Below are positions 38,211 to 42,318 of a stretch of DNA of 58,095 nt, piece after piece; within the stretch, counting starts at the first letter, position 1; the number at the start of each line of letters is the position of its first letter. Below the pieces are notes generated by a model. It was given only the letters and a program-made list of their open reading frames with translations, was not told where the DNA came from and made no database searches. Position numbers and translations under genes: made by a program. The stretch is from an uncultured Bacilli bacterium (GTDB taxonomy: Bacteria; Bacillota_I; Bacilli_A; RF39; UBA660). The stretch lies in contig CANQHQ010000004.1 in NCBI GenBank assembly GCA_947623825.1, positions 1 to 58,095 of the forward strand. Reading direction: 5' to 3'.

Positions 38211-39806
38211 TTAAATTCCAGCATGATCCACATTTCCACCACCGTCTGTTCCGCTATTTCTACCAATAATTCCATGAACATTGCTATTTCCCGTAATGCT
38301 ACTTGAGAAATTTTCATTATTTCTGACGGTTCCCATGTTATTTCCAACGATTCCTCCAATGTTTTGTTTTCCAGAAACTTTGGCATCTTTTTGATTGGTG
38401 CAGGATTCAATTATTCCATTCGCTTTGTTGTATCCAGCAATTCCACCGATATGTAAACCACCTGTTTGGGTAGTGACATACGTTTTCACTTCTCCATAGT
38501 TTTCACAGTTTTTGATGGTTCCTCCTCCTGCTGTGGCTTTTGCATCTTGCATATTCGCAAATCCAGCAATTCCACCGACATAACTTTGACCGACGACGGT
38601 TCCATAATTCTTACAGTTCTCAATGGTTGAATTTGCCATCCAAGCGGTAATTCCTCCTGCTGGACCGGAATAAGAAGCAGTAGCTCCGGTAAATTCTGTT
38701 CTAACGGAGGCGTGATTTTCACAATTTCTAGCAGTCGCATTTAATTCCATAAAACCAACTACCCCACCAGAATAGGTATCTTCCGATGTATGAACTGTAT
38801 CTACAGACATGACAGAATCACCATCAACAATTACATTTTCAATTAGACCGCCTACCATTTTTCCAATTACCATACCTGCCGTCTGATTTTCATTGTACAC
38901 ATCGCTCGAAGAAACATGGAAATTCTTAATCGTCGCGTTCGTAGTATTACCAAATAAACCGATACTAACTTGGAGAGATTTATGAATTCTCATATTGGAA
39001 ATCGTATGGCCTCCTCCGTTAAAGGTACCTTGGAAAGGATATTCCAGCATTCCAATTGGGAGGAATCCAGTTTCGGAAGTCAATTCTTCGAATAAGTTTG
39101 CTGCGGCAACATCATTCAAATTGATATCCCCATAATCGGTACGATCAGCATTTTCGTATTTCGTTTTATCTTCAAAATCTAAGTCTCTTGTCATTTTCCA
39201 TCTTTGCGTAATCACTTCTGCACTGGTTTTGTGATTTCTTCCTTTGATGGTATCTCTTACAGCTAAACTTAAATCCAAAAGATCTTCAATTGTTTGAATG
39301 GCTCCTTCTTGAACCACAGGATAATTAAATTCAATCGTTTTTTGATAAGGTGATTTTGATGTCACCCGAATTGTTACATGGTTGGTAGGGTCTTCTAAAT
39401 TTTTTATTTTCAACGTTATAGGAATCTCTTCCTCTTTTGCAACTGTTCCGGCTAATGTCCCTTCGATGGTATCTCCTTCGGCAAAAGTAAATTTGGAACT
39501 ATTGACGATGGCAATCTCATAAGAGATATCATAAGGATTCACTGAGCCGTTTTCCTGATTCGTTAGACGCAAGTGAAATGTTGTTTCTTCCGTTAAAATG
39601 ATATCCGTATCTGCTTCATCTGCAGTGCGGGGAAAGACAATTTGACTTTCTACTTGTTCTGCATTGAAATGAAAAGGAGCAGATGTAACGGCTACATCAA
39701 AATTTCTTGTGAGGACATATTTCGCATAGGTTTTATTTCCTACGGCATAAAGAAAGCAAAACGTAATCGCCAAAACAAGAAAGATTTTTCTAATTTTTTT
39801 GTTCAT
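38211..39806 (-). CDS. GLUG-repeat protein with a SipW-type leader and a TasA-like first domain (candidate adhesin or anchor of the fibre)
   Basis: N-terminus MNKKIRKIFLVLAITFCFLYAVGNKTYAKY...FDVAVTS matches the leaders of the three upstream proteins. The C-terminal half has repeated GG[IV][AV]G...G.I.NC.N motifs (GLUG). Start at 39806 (GGTGAG SD) overlaps the sipW stop by 17 nt. Confidence 0.8.
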   Translation of the reverse strand: MNKKIRKIFLVLAITFCFLYAVGNKTYAKYVLTRNFDVAVTSAPFHFNAEQVESQIVFPRTADEADTDIILTEETTFHLRLTNQENGSVNPYDISYEIAIVNSSKFTFAEGDTIEGTLAGTVAKEEEIPITLKIKNLEDPTNHVTIRVTSKSPYQKTIEFNYPVVQEGAIQTIEDLLDLSLAVRDTIKGRNHKTSAEVITQRWKMTRDLDFEDKTKYENADRTDYGDINLNDVAAANLFEELTSETGFLPIGMLEYPFQGTFNGGGHTISNMRIHKSLQVSIGLFGNTTNATIKNFHVSSSDVYNENQTAGMVIGKMVGGLIENVIVDGDSVMSVDTVHTSEDTYSGGVVGFMELNATARNCENHASVRTEFTGATASYSGPAGGITAWMANSTIENCKNYGTVVGQSYVGGIAGFANMQDAKATAGGGTIKNCENYGEVKTYVTTQTGGLHIGGIAGYNKANGIIESCTNQKDAKVSGKQNIGGIVGNNMGTVRNNENFSSSITGNSNVHGIIGRNSGTDGGGNVDHAGI

Positions 39807-40326
39807 ATCTCTCACCTTTTTCTTTTTTCTTTGATTCCTTTTCTCCACTGACGGCGTAACCTAATCCAATCACAAAGAAAAGGATTAACAGAACAATTGG
39901 TCTTTTCAAGAATAGAAGAATGGTTCCTAATTTAGGAATCGCTGTCACGTATTTTCCTAGTACTTCTTCTTTCTTTACTTCTTCTTCATCAATTCCTGAA
40001 TTGGCATCTCCTTTGGTTACGAAACTAATCGTCCCTTTTTCTTCTTTTATCTCTATGACTCGATGTGTAACAATAGTGTGATTCTGTTCAAAAGAAATAA
40101 TATCATTTTTTTGAATCTCGTCTGTTTCTTTGACAATCACTACATCTCCTTTTTGAAAAGTAGGAGCCATACTTCCTGTCAAAACAATCAAATTCCGATA
40201 TCCGAAAATTTCGGGTATCTTCTCTTTTCCTATCCATTTCTGCGTGAGAATTAGACAATTGTAAATAGCAATTAAAATCAAAAGAAGAGAACAGAAAAGA
40301 CGGAATCCTTTTTTTACTATTTTCAT
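39790..40326 (-). CDS. sipW: Signal peptidase I, SipW (ER/archaeal) type
   Basis: LTGSMAPTF (catalytic Ser), VTHRVIEI (His in place of the P-type Lys), KGDAN box, and an extra C-terminal TM helix. Confidence 0.88.
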   Translation of the reverse strand: MKIVKKGFRLFCSLLLILIAIYNCLILTQKWIGKEKIPEIFGYRNLIVLTGSMAPTFQKGDVVIVKETDEIQKNDIISFEQNHTIVTHRVIEIKEEKGTISFVTKGDANSGIDEEEVKKEEVLGKYVTAIPKLGTILLFLKRPIVLLILFFVIGLGYAVSGEKESKKKEKGERYEQKN

Positions 40327-40334
40327 GGTTCACC

Positions 40335-40841
40335 TTATGCTACTACTTGCGTTGCTTTTAACTCTACGAAAACAGAAGCCTCTTGTCCCGCATATTTTAC
40401 TTGATTATCACTTTCGTCCCATAAAATTTTCATTTTATAATTTTTTACTTGTTGTGTTCCGTATTGTAATCTTTCTTCGGCGGTTTTTCCTTCTGTTATG
40501 GTGATTTCTTCTCCCTTTTCATTGAAGAGTTGAATTTGTAAAGGAATTTCCCCTTCGACACGTACTTCTAATCGATAAGTTAATAATACTTCATTTGTTT
40601 TCCCATTTTCTTGATTCGATACAGAAAAGTCATATTCTTCACTGTCACCTGGCAACATATCGGTAATTTGATAAGAAATTCCGTGATTACTTAAATTTAA
40701 TTCTGGCACCGCTACAATATCATTCTCTGAAGAAATTTTTCCAACATAACGACTGGTAGTTGTATTAAATGTGTATAAAAAAGTTCCTACGATGATAAAA
40801 ACAATCAAATATTGTATTTCTTTTTTCTTATGATTTCTCAT
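40335..40841 (-). CDS. TasA/camelysin-like protein with a SipW-type leader (minor paralogue 2)
   Basis: Leader ...IVGTFLYTFNTTTSRY..NDIVAVP, with the MLPGDSEEYDFSVSN beta-rich core typical of the family. Confidence 0.65.
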   Translation of the reverse strand: MRNHKKKEIQYLIVFIIVGTFLYTFNTTTSRYVGKISSENDIVAVPELNLSNHGISYQITDMLPGDSEEYDFSVSNQENGKTNEVLLTYRLEVRVEGEIPLQIQLFNEKGEEITITEGKTAEERLQYGTQQVKNYKMKILWDESDNQVKYAGQEASVFVELKATQVVA

Positions 40842-40851
40842 ATTTTTCCCC

Positions 40852-41427
40852 CTAGTCCAGTCTCTGCTTTATCGTAGAAGACACGCGAAGAGTCGTTCCT
40901 GTAATGACTGGATTTACCTTCTCTTCCGGTTGGTTCCAACGCCAATAAACTTTGATATTCAGTGTATCTGTTTCCTTAAATCCCTCTGTTTGACTCGGAA
41001 GAAGAAGACTTCCCTGAACGAGATTATTTTCTATAGGAGTTTCCGTTTCATCATTCAAAAGGAATTTTGTAAGTGTGAAAGATTCATCTAGTTCTTCTAG
41101 ATGAAATGCAAATTCGTAATCTAATCCTACTTCAGTTCCTGCTGGATTGATTTCAATTTCAAAATATCCTTCGGTATCTGGAAGAATTTTATTATTTTGC
41201 GTGTTGGTCGTTGGACTCAATTTCAAGTCGAAAGTCTCTCCATCTATGGCATTGATTCCGTTCACAAGTACGTGAAAATCCGCAATGTCCATCGAAGAAT
41301 TTCCCATTGTGAAATCCGAGTAGCGAGAGAGACTATGACCTGTGAGAACTAAGGCACAAATTACAAGATAGACAAAGGCAATTTTTTTGATTCCTACTTT
41401 TAGACGATATTTCTTTTTTGTTGGCAT
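40852..41427 (-). CDS. TasA/camelysin-like protein with a SipW-type leader (minor paralogue 1)
   Basis: Leader ...VICALVLTGHSLSRY..SMDIADF. ILPDTEGYFEIEINPAGTEVGLDYEF parallels IAPGTTAKATATIDLTGTETAVDLIV in the first gene. Confidence 0.65.
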   Translation of the reverse strand: MPTKKKYRLKVGIKKIAFVYLVICALVLTGHSLSRYSDFTMGNSSMDIADFHVLVNGINAIDGETFDLKLSPTTNTQNNKILPDTEGYFEIEINPAGTEVGLDYEFAFHLEELDESFTLTKFLLNDETETPIENNLVQGSLLLPSQTEGFKETDTLNIKVYWRWNQPEEKVNPVITGTTLRVSSTIKQRLD

Positions 41428-41648
41428 AAAGCCTCCTTATTTATTCTTCATAGGTATGAATTTTTATTTCTAATTGATGATTTAAATCGATATTTGTTTC
41501 AATCCCCGTATCATTTTATGATTCAAATCTTTCGTATTTCAATCATGATCATTACGAATGATAAATGATAAGTAGTACTACGACTCTCACCATTACAATC
41601 TGGACAATTTTTGTTAAAAGTGATATCAAAGGTATCCACTTAAAGTTC

Positions 41649-41683
41649 CCAATCAAGTTTAAAAAAATTCTAAACTTGATTGG
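41649..41683 (-). promoter_or_regulatory. Perfect 12-bp hairpin 26 nt downstream of the first TasA-like gene (attenuator or mRNA-end stabiliser)
   Basis: CCAATCAAGTTT-N11-AAACTTGATTGG, with no strong T-run after it on the minus strand. Confidence 0.45.
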
Positions 41684-41709
41684 AAGTTTTAATCCTTCCA
41701 ATGATTTTA

Positions 41710-42318
41710 TTAGTCGATGTGTTGTCTTACTGTGAAGTCTACTGGAATAGATAAAGTTCCACCATTCTTACCTACTGATGTATCATCAACATTGTTTTGC
41801 TCTTGGTTCTTCCAAGTCAATGTAATTTCTACTGTGAATTTTCCGTTTGTTTCAGTAAAGGCAGTGTTCTGAACTGGGATTTTGAAAGGGGCATCCGTTG
41901 TACCCGATCCTGTTACGGATGAAATTTCACTATTTCCGTTACATGCGATTTCTAATTCTACATCGTCTTTGCTCAAGCCTACCGCTTCTAATGCTGATTC
42001 AAAATCGGCATCCTTAGCTTCCACAATTAGGTCGACAGCAGTTTCTGTTCCTGTTAAATCGATAGTTGCTGTTGCCTTGGCAGTCGTTCCTGGAGCAATT
42101 TTATTATCAACTACGTTAGTATTCTCATTGACTACAAAATCAAGGGTAAGACTTGTTGATTCTTGACCATTTACCTTTACTTTCCAGTTAGCGATGGCAA
42201 CAGAATCTGTTCCTTTATAAGTCCCCTCATATCTTGCGTAGGTACTTCCAATGAAGAAAAGAGACATAACCATTAACATCATGGTAACCATAGTAGTTCC
42301 TACTGTTTTCTTACTCAT
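41710..42318 (-). CDS. TasA/camelysin-like protein with a SipW-type leader (putative major subunit)
   Basis: Leader MSKKTVGTTMVTMMLMVMSLFFIGSTYARY..SVAIANW with KIAPGT and a beta-rich core. Start set to the ATG at 42318 (GAAGGTGA SD). Confidence 0.7.
   Translation of the reverse strand: MSKKTVGTTMVTMMLMVMSLFFIGSTYARYEGTYKGTDSVAIANWKVKVNGQESTSLTLDFVVNENTNVVDNKIAPGTTAKATATIDLTGTETAVDLIVEAKDADFESALEAVGLSKDDVELEIACNGNSEISSVTGSGTTDAPFKIPVQNTAFTETNGKFTVEITLTWKNQEQNNVDDTSVGKNGGTLSIPVDFTVRQHID

Follow-up and report, generated by a model that had tools for sequence, protein, structure and literature searches.

The 58,095-nucleotide stretch of DNA analysed here (the window: contig CANQHQ010000004.1 of assembly GCA_947623825.1, from an uncultured Bacilli bacterium) carries, between positions 38,211 and 42,318, a cluster of five genes: three for putative fibre subunits (open reading frames ORF1, ORF2, and ORF3), one for a SipW-type signal peptidase, and one for a long protein with GLUG repeats (the GLUG protein). 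An earlier note, made by a model from the sequence alone, had read the cluster as a locus for an extracellular fibre resembling the TasA fibres of Bacillus subtilis; all five genes lie where that note had placed them, and all are on the minus strand. We conclude that the locus is most likely a reduced, partly eroded copy of a gut-Firmicutes cassette that builds a cell-surface fibre. The genes, in the order of their transcription and with predicted cleavage sites marked by a slash, are as follows:

42318..41710, minus strand: ORF1, 202 aa, putative major fibre subunit, leader ending in ...GSTYA/RY
41427..40852, minus strand: ORF2, 191 aa, ORF1 paralogue and putative minor subunit, leader ending in ...HSLS/RY
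40841..40335, minus strand: ORF3, 168 aa, remote TasA-like subunit, leader ending in ...TTTS/RY
40326..39790, minus strand: SipW-type (archaeal/ER-type; ER, endoplasmic reticulum) signal peptidase I, sipW_B copy, 178 aa
39806..38211, minus strand: GLUG protein, 531 aa, with leader ...KTYA/KY, immunoglobulin-like (Ig-like) domain, helix, and GLUG beta-helix; putative tip adhesin or initiator

From ORF2 through the GLUG gene, intergenic gaps are 8-10 bp or the genes overlap, the overlap between the peptidase gene and the start of the GLUG gene being 17 nt.

Peptidase, leaders and candidate subunits

The peptidase scores 107.8 bits against TIGR02228, the model for archaeal-type signal peptidase I (cutoff 51.85), and also exceeds the Pfam cutoffs of Peptidase_S24 and S26. 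The ER/archaeal hallmarks that had been noted for it are all in the sequence: GSMAPT, THRV with His instead of Lys, GDAN, and a C-terminal hydrophobic helix. The 17 syntenic orthologues compared all retain Ser52 (in GSMAPT), His88 (in THRV), and GD107. Against NF046067, the equivalog model for B. subtilis SipW, the score is 100.8 bits, below the cutoff of 190. As judged from sequence, the peptidase is the same type of enzyme as B. subtilis SipW and is not its orthologue. A scan of species-representative genomes with an ORF1 profile yielded 43 related loci, and a SipW-type gene is linked to ORF1-type genes in 43 of the 43, often in two copies.

The four other proteins share a leader. The strings STYARY (ORF1), SLSRY (ORF2), TTSRY (ORF3), and KTYAKY (GLUG protein) are all preceded by a basic N-region and then a hydrophobic stretch, and the strings SVAIANW, SMDIADF, NDIVAVP, and FDVAVTS lie 8-12 residues past the leader motif, all as the earlier note had described. 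Among the 83 window ORFs of at least 80 aa, these four are the only ones with [ST]x[AS][RK][YF] right after a hydrophobic N-terminal segment. Alignments of orthologues give the family leaders as GTYARY for ORF1 (with R29, Y30, and A43 invariant), SYTFSRY...IAKFNV for ORF2, and TFNVTSSRY...AVP for ORF3 (with N26, S30, Y32, and P46 invariant), and an alignment of homologues gives TY[AS]KY for the GLUG protein. Because the orthologues of each family retain the motif, we conclude that it did not arise by chance.

The same motif had been taken for a SipW-type signal, and this assignment is supported by three properties: the -3/-1 rule is obeyed, the motif is in register with the TasA cleavage site, and a SipW-type gene is adjacent. 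Mature TasA begins at A28, after the cleavage site GGGTWA/AF (TasA sequence checked against PDB entry 8aur), and the small residues at -3 and -1 in the window proteins, namely T-Y-A/R, S-L-S/R, T-T-S/R, and T-Y-A/K, match the register of T-W-A/A in TasA. The signal-peptide model TIGR04088 has no match at E≤1 in any of the four window proteins. From the pattern of residues we infer that the peptidase remaining in the window would cleave at [AS]/[RK]Y.

To compare the subunits we used hhalign with leaders trimmed, instead of untrimmed runs, which gave inflated values (96% for ORF1 with ORF3; 92%, over 38 leader columns, for ORF1 with the N-terminal domain of the GLUG protein). The trimmed values are 99.6% for ORF1 with ORF2 (BLASTP E 5e-12), 62% for ORF1 with ORF3 (E 7e-5), and 21% for ORF2 with ORF3. 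The description of the locus as encoding three TasA-like paralogues therefore goes too far: ORF1 and ORF2 are clear paralogues, but ORF3 is remote from both, and none of the three reaches the cutoff of a TasA model.

ORF3 provides the most direct link to TasA. The Peptidase_M73 model (PF12389) gives ORF3 16.7 bits (E 0.0069), short of its cutoff of 22.5, and has no match in ORF1, ORF2, or the GLUG protein; Peptidase_M73 is also the commonest Pfam match among ORF3 orthologues (7 of 22, best 9e-4, all below cutoff). A word-indexed homologue search with ORF3 returned ORF3 itself only, and the ORF3 family was assembled from the related loci. The resulting profile, searched against the 177,635 distinct sequences of the PDB, finds TasA alone (5of1, E 0.0015; 8aur, E 0.0019), the next match having an E of 0.87. 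The alignment spans TasA residues 32-86: that is, the region of the donor strand, which comprises residues 28-38 (PMC9674648), its linker, and the PGD strand. A comparison of ORF3 with TasA gives 53.5% in hhalign.

The family of ORF1 is large and lacks a model in both Pfam and NCBIfam. In an exhaustive profile search over 50%-identity clusters, 4,372 representatives matched at E≤1e-3, of which 1,492 also did so at E≤1e-10, and no Pfam family recurs among 123 members analysed. Some of these 123 match models for SipW substrates weakly (TIGR04088 in seven, best 0.003; TIGR04087 in six), and three match TIGR04090, the model for BsaA of Clostridium perfringens, with a best E of 2.3e-6; TIGR04090 has no match among the window proteins. 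As regards the N-E-K triad for an intermolecular isopeptide bond in the BsaA family, residues conserved in the ORF1 family include K73, E92, N66, D87, and D179. A phmmer search of the PDB with ORF1 returned nothing, the ORF1 and ORF2 profiles gave no TasA match, and the 7.5% obtained for the single TasA sequence against the ORF1 profile we discount. The AlphaFold2 model of ORF1 (predicted local distance difference test, pLDDT, 72) is a beta-sandwich in which residues 27-40 have a pLDDT below 50, and a Foldseek search with this model places the TasA fibre (8aur_A) at rank 2 (E 1.1e-3; template-modelling score, TM-score, ~0.3). In our reading, ORF1, ORF2, and ORF3 are diverged members of the TasA/BsaA superfamily, and of the three ORF3 has the best support.

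In seven proteins from elsewhere (P0113, P0163, P0170, P0172, P0146, P0156, and P0169) an ORF1-like N-terminal domain is fused to DUF4874 plus DUF4832, to Flg_new (Listeria-Bacteroides repeats), or to DUF285/leucine-rich repeats. The ORF1-type domain seems to serve generally as a carrier of modules for display.

The GLUG protein combines the common leader with a different architecture. Its AlphaFold2 model, built with 33 homologues, has a pLDDT of 92.1 and a predicted TM-score of 0.86 and consists of a transmembrane helix (residues 3-22), a segment with pLDDT below 50 (24-40), a beta-sandwich (48-166), a helix (173-183) that lies inside the conserved junction QEGAIQTIEDLVDLSL, and a beta-helix (~260-522). 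The GLUG repeats that had been proposed for the C-terminal part are confirmed, on the basis of orthologues, profile search, and fold: the window protein itself scores 14 bits against the Pfam Glug model (PF07581), below the cutoff of 20.5, but orthologues carry PF07581; the family profile matches 3n6z (E 3.7e-12) and 7uvl (E 7.7e-11) in the PDB, where phmmer with the single protein finds nothing; and Foldseek matches the model to IgA1 protease 6xja (E 4e-5) and to 3n6z (TM-score 0.51). The beta-helix, of about 270 residues, is thus homologous to the N-terminal/GLUG region of IgA1 protease and to BACOVA_03286. Identity as an IgA1 (M26) protease was considered and rejected, as there is no HExxH motif or M26 domain and the fold of the N-terminal region is all that is common to the two. 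HExxH, LPXTG, and a C-terminal anchor are all absent from the sequence, and on these grounds we regard the protein as a binding module, not a protease.

The first domain of this 531-aa protein had been described as TasA-like, and this description did not hold. Beyond the leader and the N-terminal strand, the domain has no detectable homology to ORF1-ORF3 or TasA (at most 1.2% in hhalign with leaders trimmed), and its pairwise match to ORF3 (E 0.002) is mostly leader. Its fold matches generic Ig/macroglobulin-like domains (macroglobulin domains of C3, integrin, CLIPPER), and TasA is not in the top 50 Foldseek matches.

Among homologues of the GLUG protein, five distant ones (P0233, P0234, P0242, P0253, and P0266) have the same junction and GLUG module behind a type IV prepilin-like leader KGITLIALVVTIVVILILAG, and six others (P0194, P0198, P0202, P0206, P0207, and P0209) have an additional N-terminal domain. 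The prepilin-like relatives, together with the fusions of the ORF1-like domain, fit an arrangement in which a filament-subunit N-terminus carries a displayed cargo.

Ancestral cassette, eroded genes and stem-loop

The 43 related loci all come from metagenome-assembled genomes, mainly labelled uncultured Bacilli or Clostridia, whose isolate labels ('Lapin', 'binchicken', 'Sheep_Rumen') point chiefly to animal gut or rumen samples. The recurrent gene order in these loci is sipW_A-ORF1-ORFx-ORF2-ORF3-sipW_B-GLUG. The gene organisation of the window, which the earlier note had presented as a distinctive one, is thus a reduced form of a conserved seven-gene, two-peptidase cassette. ORFx, which lies intact between ORF1 and ORF2 in 24 loci, encodes in the relatives a protein of ~250 aa with a transmembrane helix, a Cys-rich linker, and an ORF1-like core domain (hhalign 96.7% with ORF1 over 119 non-leader columns). 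Its N-terminal motif, the conserved GFIDHxPxIPTGNVDIFDIIF, differs from that of the subunits, and the ORFx family has no matches in Pfam or among PDB sequences. In the window, remains of both missing genes can be recognised, together with a stem-loop and a promoter-like element:

42730..42706, minus strand: promoter-like element AAATTTTGTCGAATAATGTTAAACT, upstream of the sipW_A relic
42642..42389, minus strand: sipW_A pseudogene relic; N-terminal third alone, with a frameshift and an in-frame TAA
41692..41640, minus strand: RNA stem-loop, directly 3' of the ORF1 stop codon, conserved
41668..41444, minus strand: ORFx relic, shortened by an internal deletion and interrupted by a frameshift and a stop, in the 282-bp ORF1-ORF2 spacer

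The sipW_A relic was recognised by tblastn with orthologues (E 2e-16; ~51% identity to residues 19-82). The TAA takes the place of the Glu that is conserved in GSME, and nothing is left of the C-terminal two thirds of the gene. The region had been taken for a long leader of ORF1; it holds the relic instead, and a regulatory 5' untranslated region is ruled out in favour of a peptidase pseudogene. The relic is base-for-base identical in two independent ENA assemblies and is therefore not an assembly artefact. The ORFx relic comprises an N-terminal piece, VDTFDITFNKNCPDCNG, at 41639..41589 and a C-terminal piece at 41542..41447 (tblastn E 2e-5) with an in-frame stop.

Of these two assemblies, one (L045) is 100% identical to the window. 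The other (L044; ENA ERZ27249187), aligned to window positions 43224..39964, is 99.3% identical and has a 6-bp deletion within the sipW_A relic and a ~16-bp deletion that frameshifts ORF2; these differences may be population variation or errors of low coverage (~2x).

The promoter-like element AAATTTTGTCGAATAATGTTAAACT aligns with a conserved element, TTTGTCGAAnTATGTTATAAT, upstream of sipW_A in three related loci (L035, L028, and L004). The -10 hexamer in the window is TAAACT, weakened relative to the conserved element. We take AAATTTTGTCGAATAATGTTAAACT for a putative promoter.

Covariation supports the hairpin reported after ORF1 as a conserved RNA structure. Its minimum free energy is -22.8 kcal/mol (z -4.45), and a stem-loop is found at the same place in seven of the eight relatives folded. 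In an alignment of 21 sequences, 88% of cells pair, vs. 77% in shuffles, and compensatory changes occur in 12 of 21 pairs; none of 500 shuffles is as good on any measure, and slid controls reach at most 52%. The stem is followed by a short U tract (CUUUAA). A search of Rfam over 38000-43300 gave chance matches only, so that neither the leader nor the hairpin corresponds to a known riboswitch or RNA family. We take it for a putative partial terminator or mRNA-stabilising element that would lift ORF1 expression above that of the downstream genes, as would suit a major subunit.

Proposed fibre assembly, rival explanations and known systems

The cassette can be understood by reference to TasA, whose long leader is cleaved by SipW and whose beta-sandwich polymerises by means of its N-terminal strand, and to TapA, which shares the N-terminal strand with TasA, donates it, and nucleates the fibre (PMC9674648). 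According to the hypothesis that the locus encodes a donor-strand fibre whose subunits are processed by the SipW-type peptidase and whose tip adhesin is the GLUG protein, to which we give a probability of roughly 0.6, the remaining peptidase would cut after the small -1 residue of each leader and free an N-terminal segment of ~15-20 residues, and this segment would serve as a donor strand by which the following subunit's beta-sandwich is completed, in the manner of TasA. ORF1 would be the major subunit and form the shaft, with the stem-loop and U tract keeping its expression above that of the downstream genes, and ORF2 and ORF3 would be minor or adaptor subunits. Since only the leader and donor segment are shared with the other subunits, the GLUG protein could donate a strand without having to accept one; like TapA in the TasA system, it would initiate the fibre. 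It would then end at the distal tip, with its beta-helix displayed as an adhesin. ORFx would be, in the relatives, a membrane-proximal terminal acceptor or anchor. In the window, one peptidase would serve all four substrates, which have a common motif, and the anchor would have been lost; with ORFx and sipW_A gone, either the fibre may be simpler and anchored less firmly, or the locus may be in decay.

Several lines of evidence carry this hypothesis. A SipW-type gene is linked in every related locus, and the gene order is conserved; the leader motif is limited to four ORFs of the window, is conserved in each family, and is in the register of TasA; and the ORF3 profile finds TasA alone in the PDB, over the donor strand. 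The segment that follows the predicted cleavage site is conserved in sequence yet modelled with low confidence (residues 27-40 in ORF1 and 24-40 in the GLUG protein), which makes it a candidate donor strand. The matches of ORF1-family members to TIGR04090 and TIGR04088, the relations among ORF1, ORF2, ORF3, and ORFx, the rank of 8aur in the fold search, and the covariation in the stem-loop point in the same direction. So do the identity and catalytic residues of the peptidase, the Peptidase_M73 matches of ORF3 orthologues, the GLUG module with its prepilin-like relatives, the fusions of the ORF1-like domain, and the precedents of TapA (PMC9674648), of BsaA operons with several paralogues (PMC11580942), and of the haloarchaeal fimbriae discussed below (PMC12337348).

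Other results weigh against a TasA-type fibre in this organism. Scoring with TIGR04088 and Peptidase_M73/TasA (PF12389), which the earlier note had proposed as a check, gave nothing above cutoff for any window protein; the same holds for TIGR04090 and any other TasA, BsaA, or SipW-substrate model, and for the Pfam and NCBIfam scans of the four non-peptidase proteins. The ORF1 family profile has zero matches in the PDB at E≤10, and the match of ORF1 to the TasA fold is weak, the confidence of the underlying model being moderate. In the GLUG protein, neither the sequence nor the fold of the first domain is TasA-like. The conserved Arg or Lys at +1, together with the long hydrophobic helix, would also fit uncleaved signal anchors. 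Finally, with two dead cassette genes in the window and a frameshifted ORF2 in the sister assembly, the system may be non-functional in this organism.

These points define three rival explanations. The four proteins could be uncleaved type II signal-anchored proteins that are displayed singly and form no polymer, with [RK]Y marking the membrane-water interface. This would account for the length of the predicted N-terminal helices (20-25 residues), for the conserved basic residue immediately past the hydrophobic segment, for the absence of any other anchor (LPXTG or C-terminal transmembrane helix) in the four proteins, and for the failure of TIGR04088 to recognise their leaders. Against it stand the conserved small residues at -3 and -1 in TasA register, the dedicated SipW-type peptidase found in 43 of 43 loci and often in two copies, and the post-motif segment, which is conserved yet unstructured and which, in ORF3, aligns with the TasA donor strand; moreover, TasA has a leader that is likewise long and is cleaved by SipW (PMC9674648). 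We consider uncleaved anchors unlikely. Equally improbable, in our estimate, is that the proteins are cleaved and secreted but remain separate matrix or adhesin proteins, soluble or loosely bound, without an ordered heteropolymer tipped by the GLUG protein. That BsaB, a BsaA paralogue, forms dimers only (PMC11580942) is a precedent for such proteins, and the non-homology of the GLUG N-terminal domain to the other subunits and the weak fold similarity of ORF1 to TasA agree with it. Nevertheless, all four proteins have in common a conserved N-terminal segment after the motif, gene order is fixed across many species, a conserved stem-loop after the ORF1 gene alone fits control of major-subunit stoichiometry, and other lineages carry the GLUG module behind N-termini of filament type.

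The third explanation concerns the window rather than the cassette: the locus could be a decaying remnant that makes no functional structure, whatever the intact cassette does elsewhere. The sipW_A and ORFx relics, of which the former is the same in independent assemblies, the deletion of ~16 bp that frameshifts ORF2 in the sister assembly, the weakened -10 of the promoter-like site, and the absence of a recombinase switch that some relatives possess (described below) are all as expected for decay. On the other hand, the five ORFs that remain are undamaged both in the window and in L045, every family-invariant residue has been kept, and one catalytic peptidase is left together with four substrates that have the same cleavage motif. 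We judge the probability of a mere remnant to be low, about that of the other two rivals, and retain the donor-strand fibre as the preferred interpretation.

Comparison with B. subtilis tapA-sipW-tasA shows the same logic with different components. In both, a Ser/His archaeal-type peptidase is encoded beside its known or predicted substrates, and these have a long leader ending in a T-x-A type site; the ORF3 family profile, in addition, matches TasA specifically. In contrast to B. subtilis, the motif in the window is [ST]x[AS]/[RK]Y and not A/AF, is TIGR04088-negative, and accompanies a peptidase below the NF046067 cutoff; the window has three subunit genes plus a beta-helix protein instead of two substrates; ORF1 and ORF2 have no direct sequence match to TasA; and the ancestral cassette had two peptidases and a transmembrane-anchored subunit.

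The products of the sipW-bsaA-bsaB-bsaC operon of C. perfringens are SipW, a pair of TasA-like paralogues, and BsaC, a large protein with a vWA domain of binding type; for BsaA, donor-strand exchange has been modelled, and its fibres are membrane-associated and not sortase-anchored (PMC11580942). The window locus resembles this operon in having a peptidase, paralogues, and a large protein with a binding domain, and a few members of the ORF1 family match the BsaA model. It differs in that the large protein is a GLUG beta-helix protein with a subunit leader and in that the window proteins themselves are TIGR04090-negative.

A parallel in overall logic is provided by the haloarchaeal Tat-fimbriae (Tafi; TafA/TafE, TafC, TafF, TafD), which have major and minor TasA-superfamily pilins, a two-domain tip protein, an anchor made of one transmembrane helix and a jelly-roll domain, and a dedicated signal peptidase (PMC12337348). 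By analogy, the intact bacterial cassette would follow the same plan, with ORF1, ORF2/ORF3, the GLUG protein, ORFx, and SipW as the respective counterparts. Tafi differ in being archaeal, in their Tat signal peptides, and in a DUF5305 partner for the peptidase, and no sequence homology beyond that of the superfamily was seen here. As regards the GLUG protein, the M26 IgA1 proteases and BACOVA_03286 (6xja, 7uvl, 3n6z) have the beta-helix in common with it, but the window protein has no M26 catalytic domain, and its GLUG module, unlike theirs, follows a SipW-type leader and an Ig-like domain.

Two other kinds of pilus were considered and ruled out: a sortase pilus, as LPXTG and a C-terminal anchor are absent from all four proteins and no sortase is among the neighbour families that clustering identified in the related loci, and a type IV pilin, as the conserved motif comes after the hydrophobic segment and not before it. 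No type IV pilus genes were seen adjoining the window locus.

TasA-superfamily loci with a dedicated peptidase, paralogous or minor subunits, and tip and anchor proteins have already been described (PMC11580942, PMC12337348, PMC9245690, bioRxiv 10.64898/2026.01.04.697558), and the novelty implied by the earlier note is accordingly lower. What is new here is a large RY-type family branch with no Pfam or NCBIfam model, a two-peptidase cassette, a GLUG beta-helix with a subunit leader, a conserved stem-loop, and the eroded copy in the window. A bolder proposal, which we advance tentatively and regard as less probable than not, is that the cassettes, of which the window holds one member, constitute a large class of gut-Firmicutes TasA-superfamily pili outside every family model, distinguished by an RY-type SipW signal, two dedicated peptidase paralogues, assembly by growth at the base, and, in some lineages, phase variation from an invertible segment with its own tyrosine recombinase. 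In such growth, cleavage of each membrane-tethered subunit would free a strand that captures the next subunit, from a strand-only GLUG tip to the transmembrane-anchored acceptor ORFx. One of the two peptidase paralogues, which has repeatedly lost its nucleophile or its gene, may act in this class as a chaperone instead of an enzyme.

Donor-strand fibres of the TasA type are now recognised as an ancient route to biofilm scaffolds and pili in bacteria and archaea, with examples from few model organisms. A family that comprises thousands of 50%-identity clusters, that has no model, and whose related loci, as recovered here, all come from metagenome-assembled genomes implies surface structures and adhesins that are invisible to current annotation. 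The intact cassette offers testable hypotheses on the coupling of peptidase and fibre growth, on the specification of tip and anchor, and on the balancing of expression by the stem-loop and its switching by an invertible recombinase cassette. The message of the window itself is more modest: its locus belongs to a kind of system already known and, though partly eroded, can still be recognised as such.

Putative recombinase switch, Ser-less peptidases and genomic neighbourhood

In 11 of the 43 related loci, a tyrosine-recombinase-like gene (~365 aa) lies directly upstream of sipW_A (in 10 of them with sipW_A called adjacent), and it occurs in both orientations. In two loci, L035 (5851-7234) and L027 (1247-2630), an identical recombinase lies on a 1.38-kb segment that is inverted between them at 99.8% identity, with collinear flanks. 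The segment is flanked by inverted repeats ~1.33 kb apart, 22-27 nt in length (in L001, 56 nt at 82%) and 82-100% complementary, with the core GAATAAAGT-N5/6-ACTTTATTC; the right repeat ends ~25 bp before sipW_A. Such repeats are present also in L001, L007, L013, and L028. Inside the segment of L035, an extended -10-like element, TGTTATAAT, faces the operon. By its sequence organisation the invertible segment looks like a phase-variation switch with its own recombinase. The window has neither the GAATAAAGT-N5/6-ACTTTATTC core nor the recombinase.

In nine of the 37 peptidase-like proteins encoded beside ORF1 homologues, the nucleophile Ser is replaced by N, D, K, or F and the GD box is missing, with the His kept. 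All nine occupy the sipW_A position (L018, L022, L026, L029, L031, L032, L033, L036, and L040), and a second SipW-like gene is present in all of these loci except L018 and L029, in which the contigs end soon after the ORF1-type genes. The substitutions suggest that these may be non-catalytic peptidase-like proteins, for which the non-catalytic SipA/LepA of Streptococcus pyogenes pilus loci are a possible parallel. Clustering of conserved neighbours in the related loci brought out only the peptidase, subunit, ORFx, and recombinase families; other gene families there were left unassigned.

The locus lies in a housekeeping neighbourhood of a genome with a GC content of ~34%, with rbfA, infB, and nusA upstream and a PrsW-family protease and VTT/DedA-type membrane proteins downstream. 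The PrsW-family intramembrane protease (37262-38059, minus strand; E 6.8e-33) is encoded directly 3' of the GLUG gene and has a C-terminal CxxC...CxxC tail that resembles a zinc ribbon. In L002, the only related locus read 3' of the GLUG gene, an unrelated ORF of 1,109 aa occupies this place.

Elsewhere in the window, a 760-aa ORF (16148-18430, minus strand) combines a signal peptide with a hydrophobic segment at the C-terminus that carries a basic tail; LPXTG is absent, and Pfam gives no match at E≤1e-5. Two very large paralogous ORFs, of 1934 aa (22399-28203, minus strand) and 1180 aa (28861-32403, minus strand), likewise have no Pfam match at E≤1e-5. Both have ordinary Sec signal peptides and near-identical mature N-termini (A/R[EQ]MTLEELGKEV...), and both are probably uncharacterised surface proteins.

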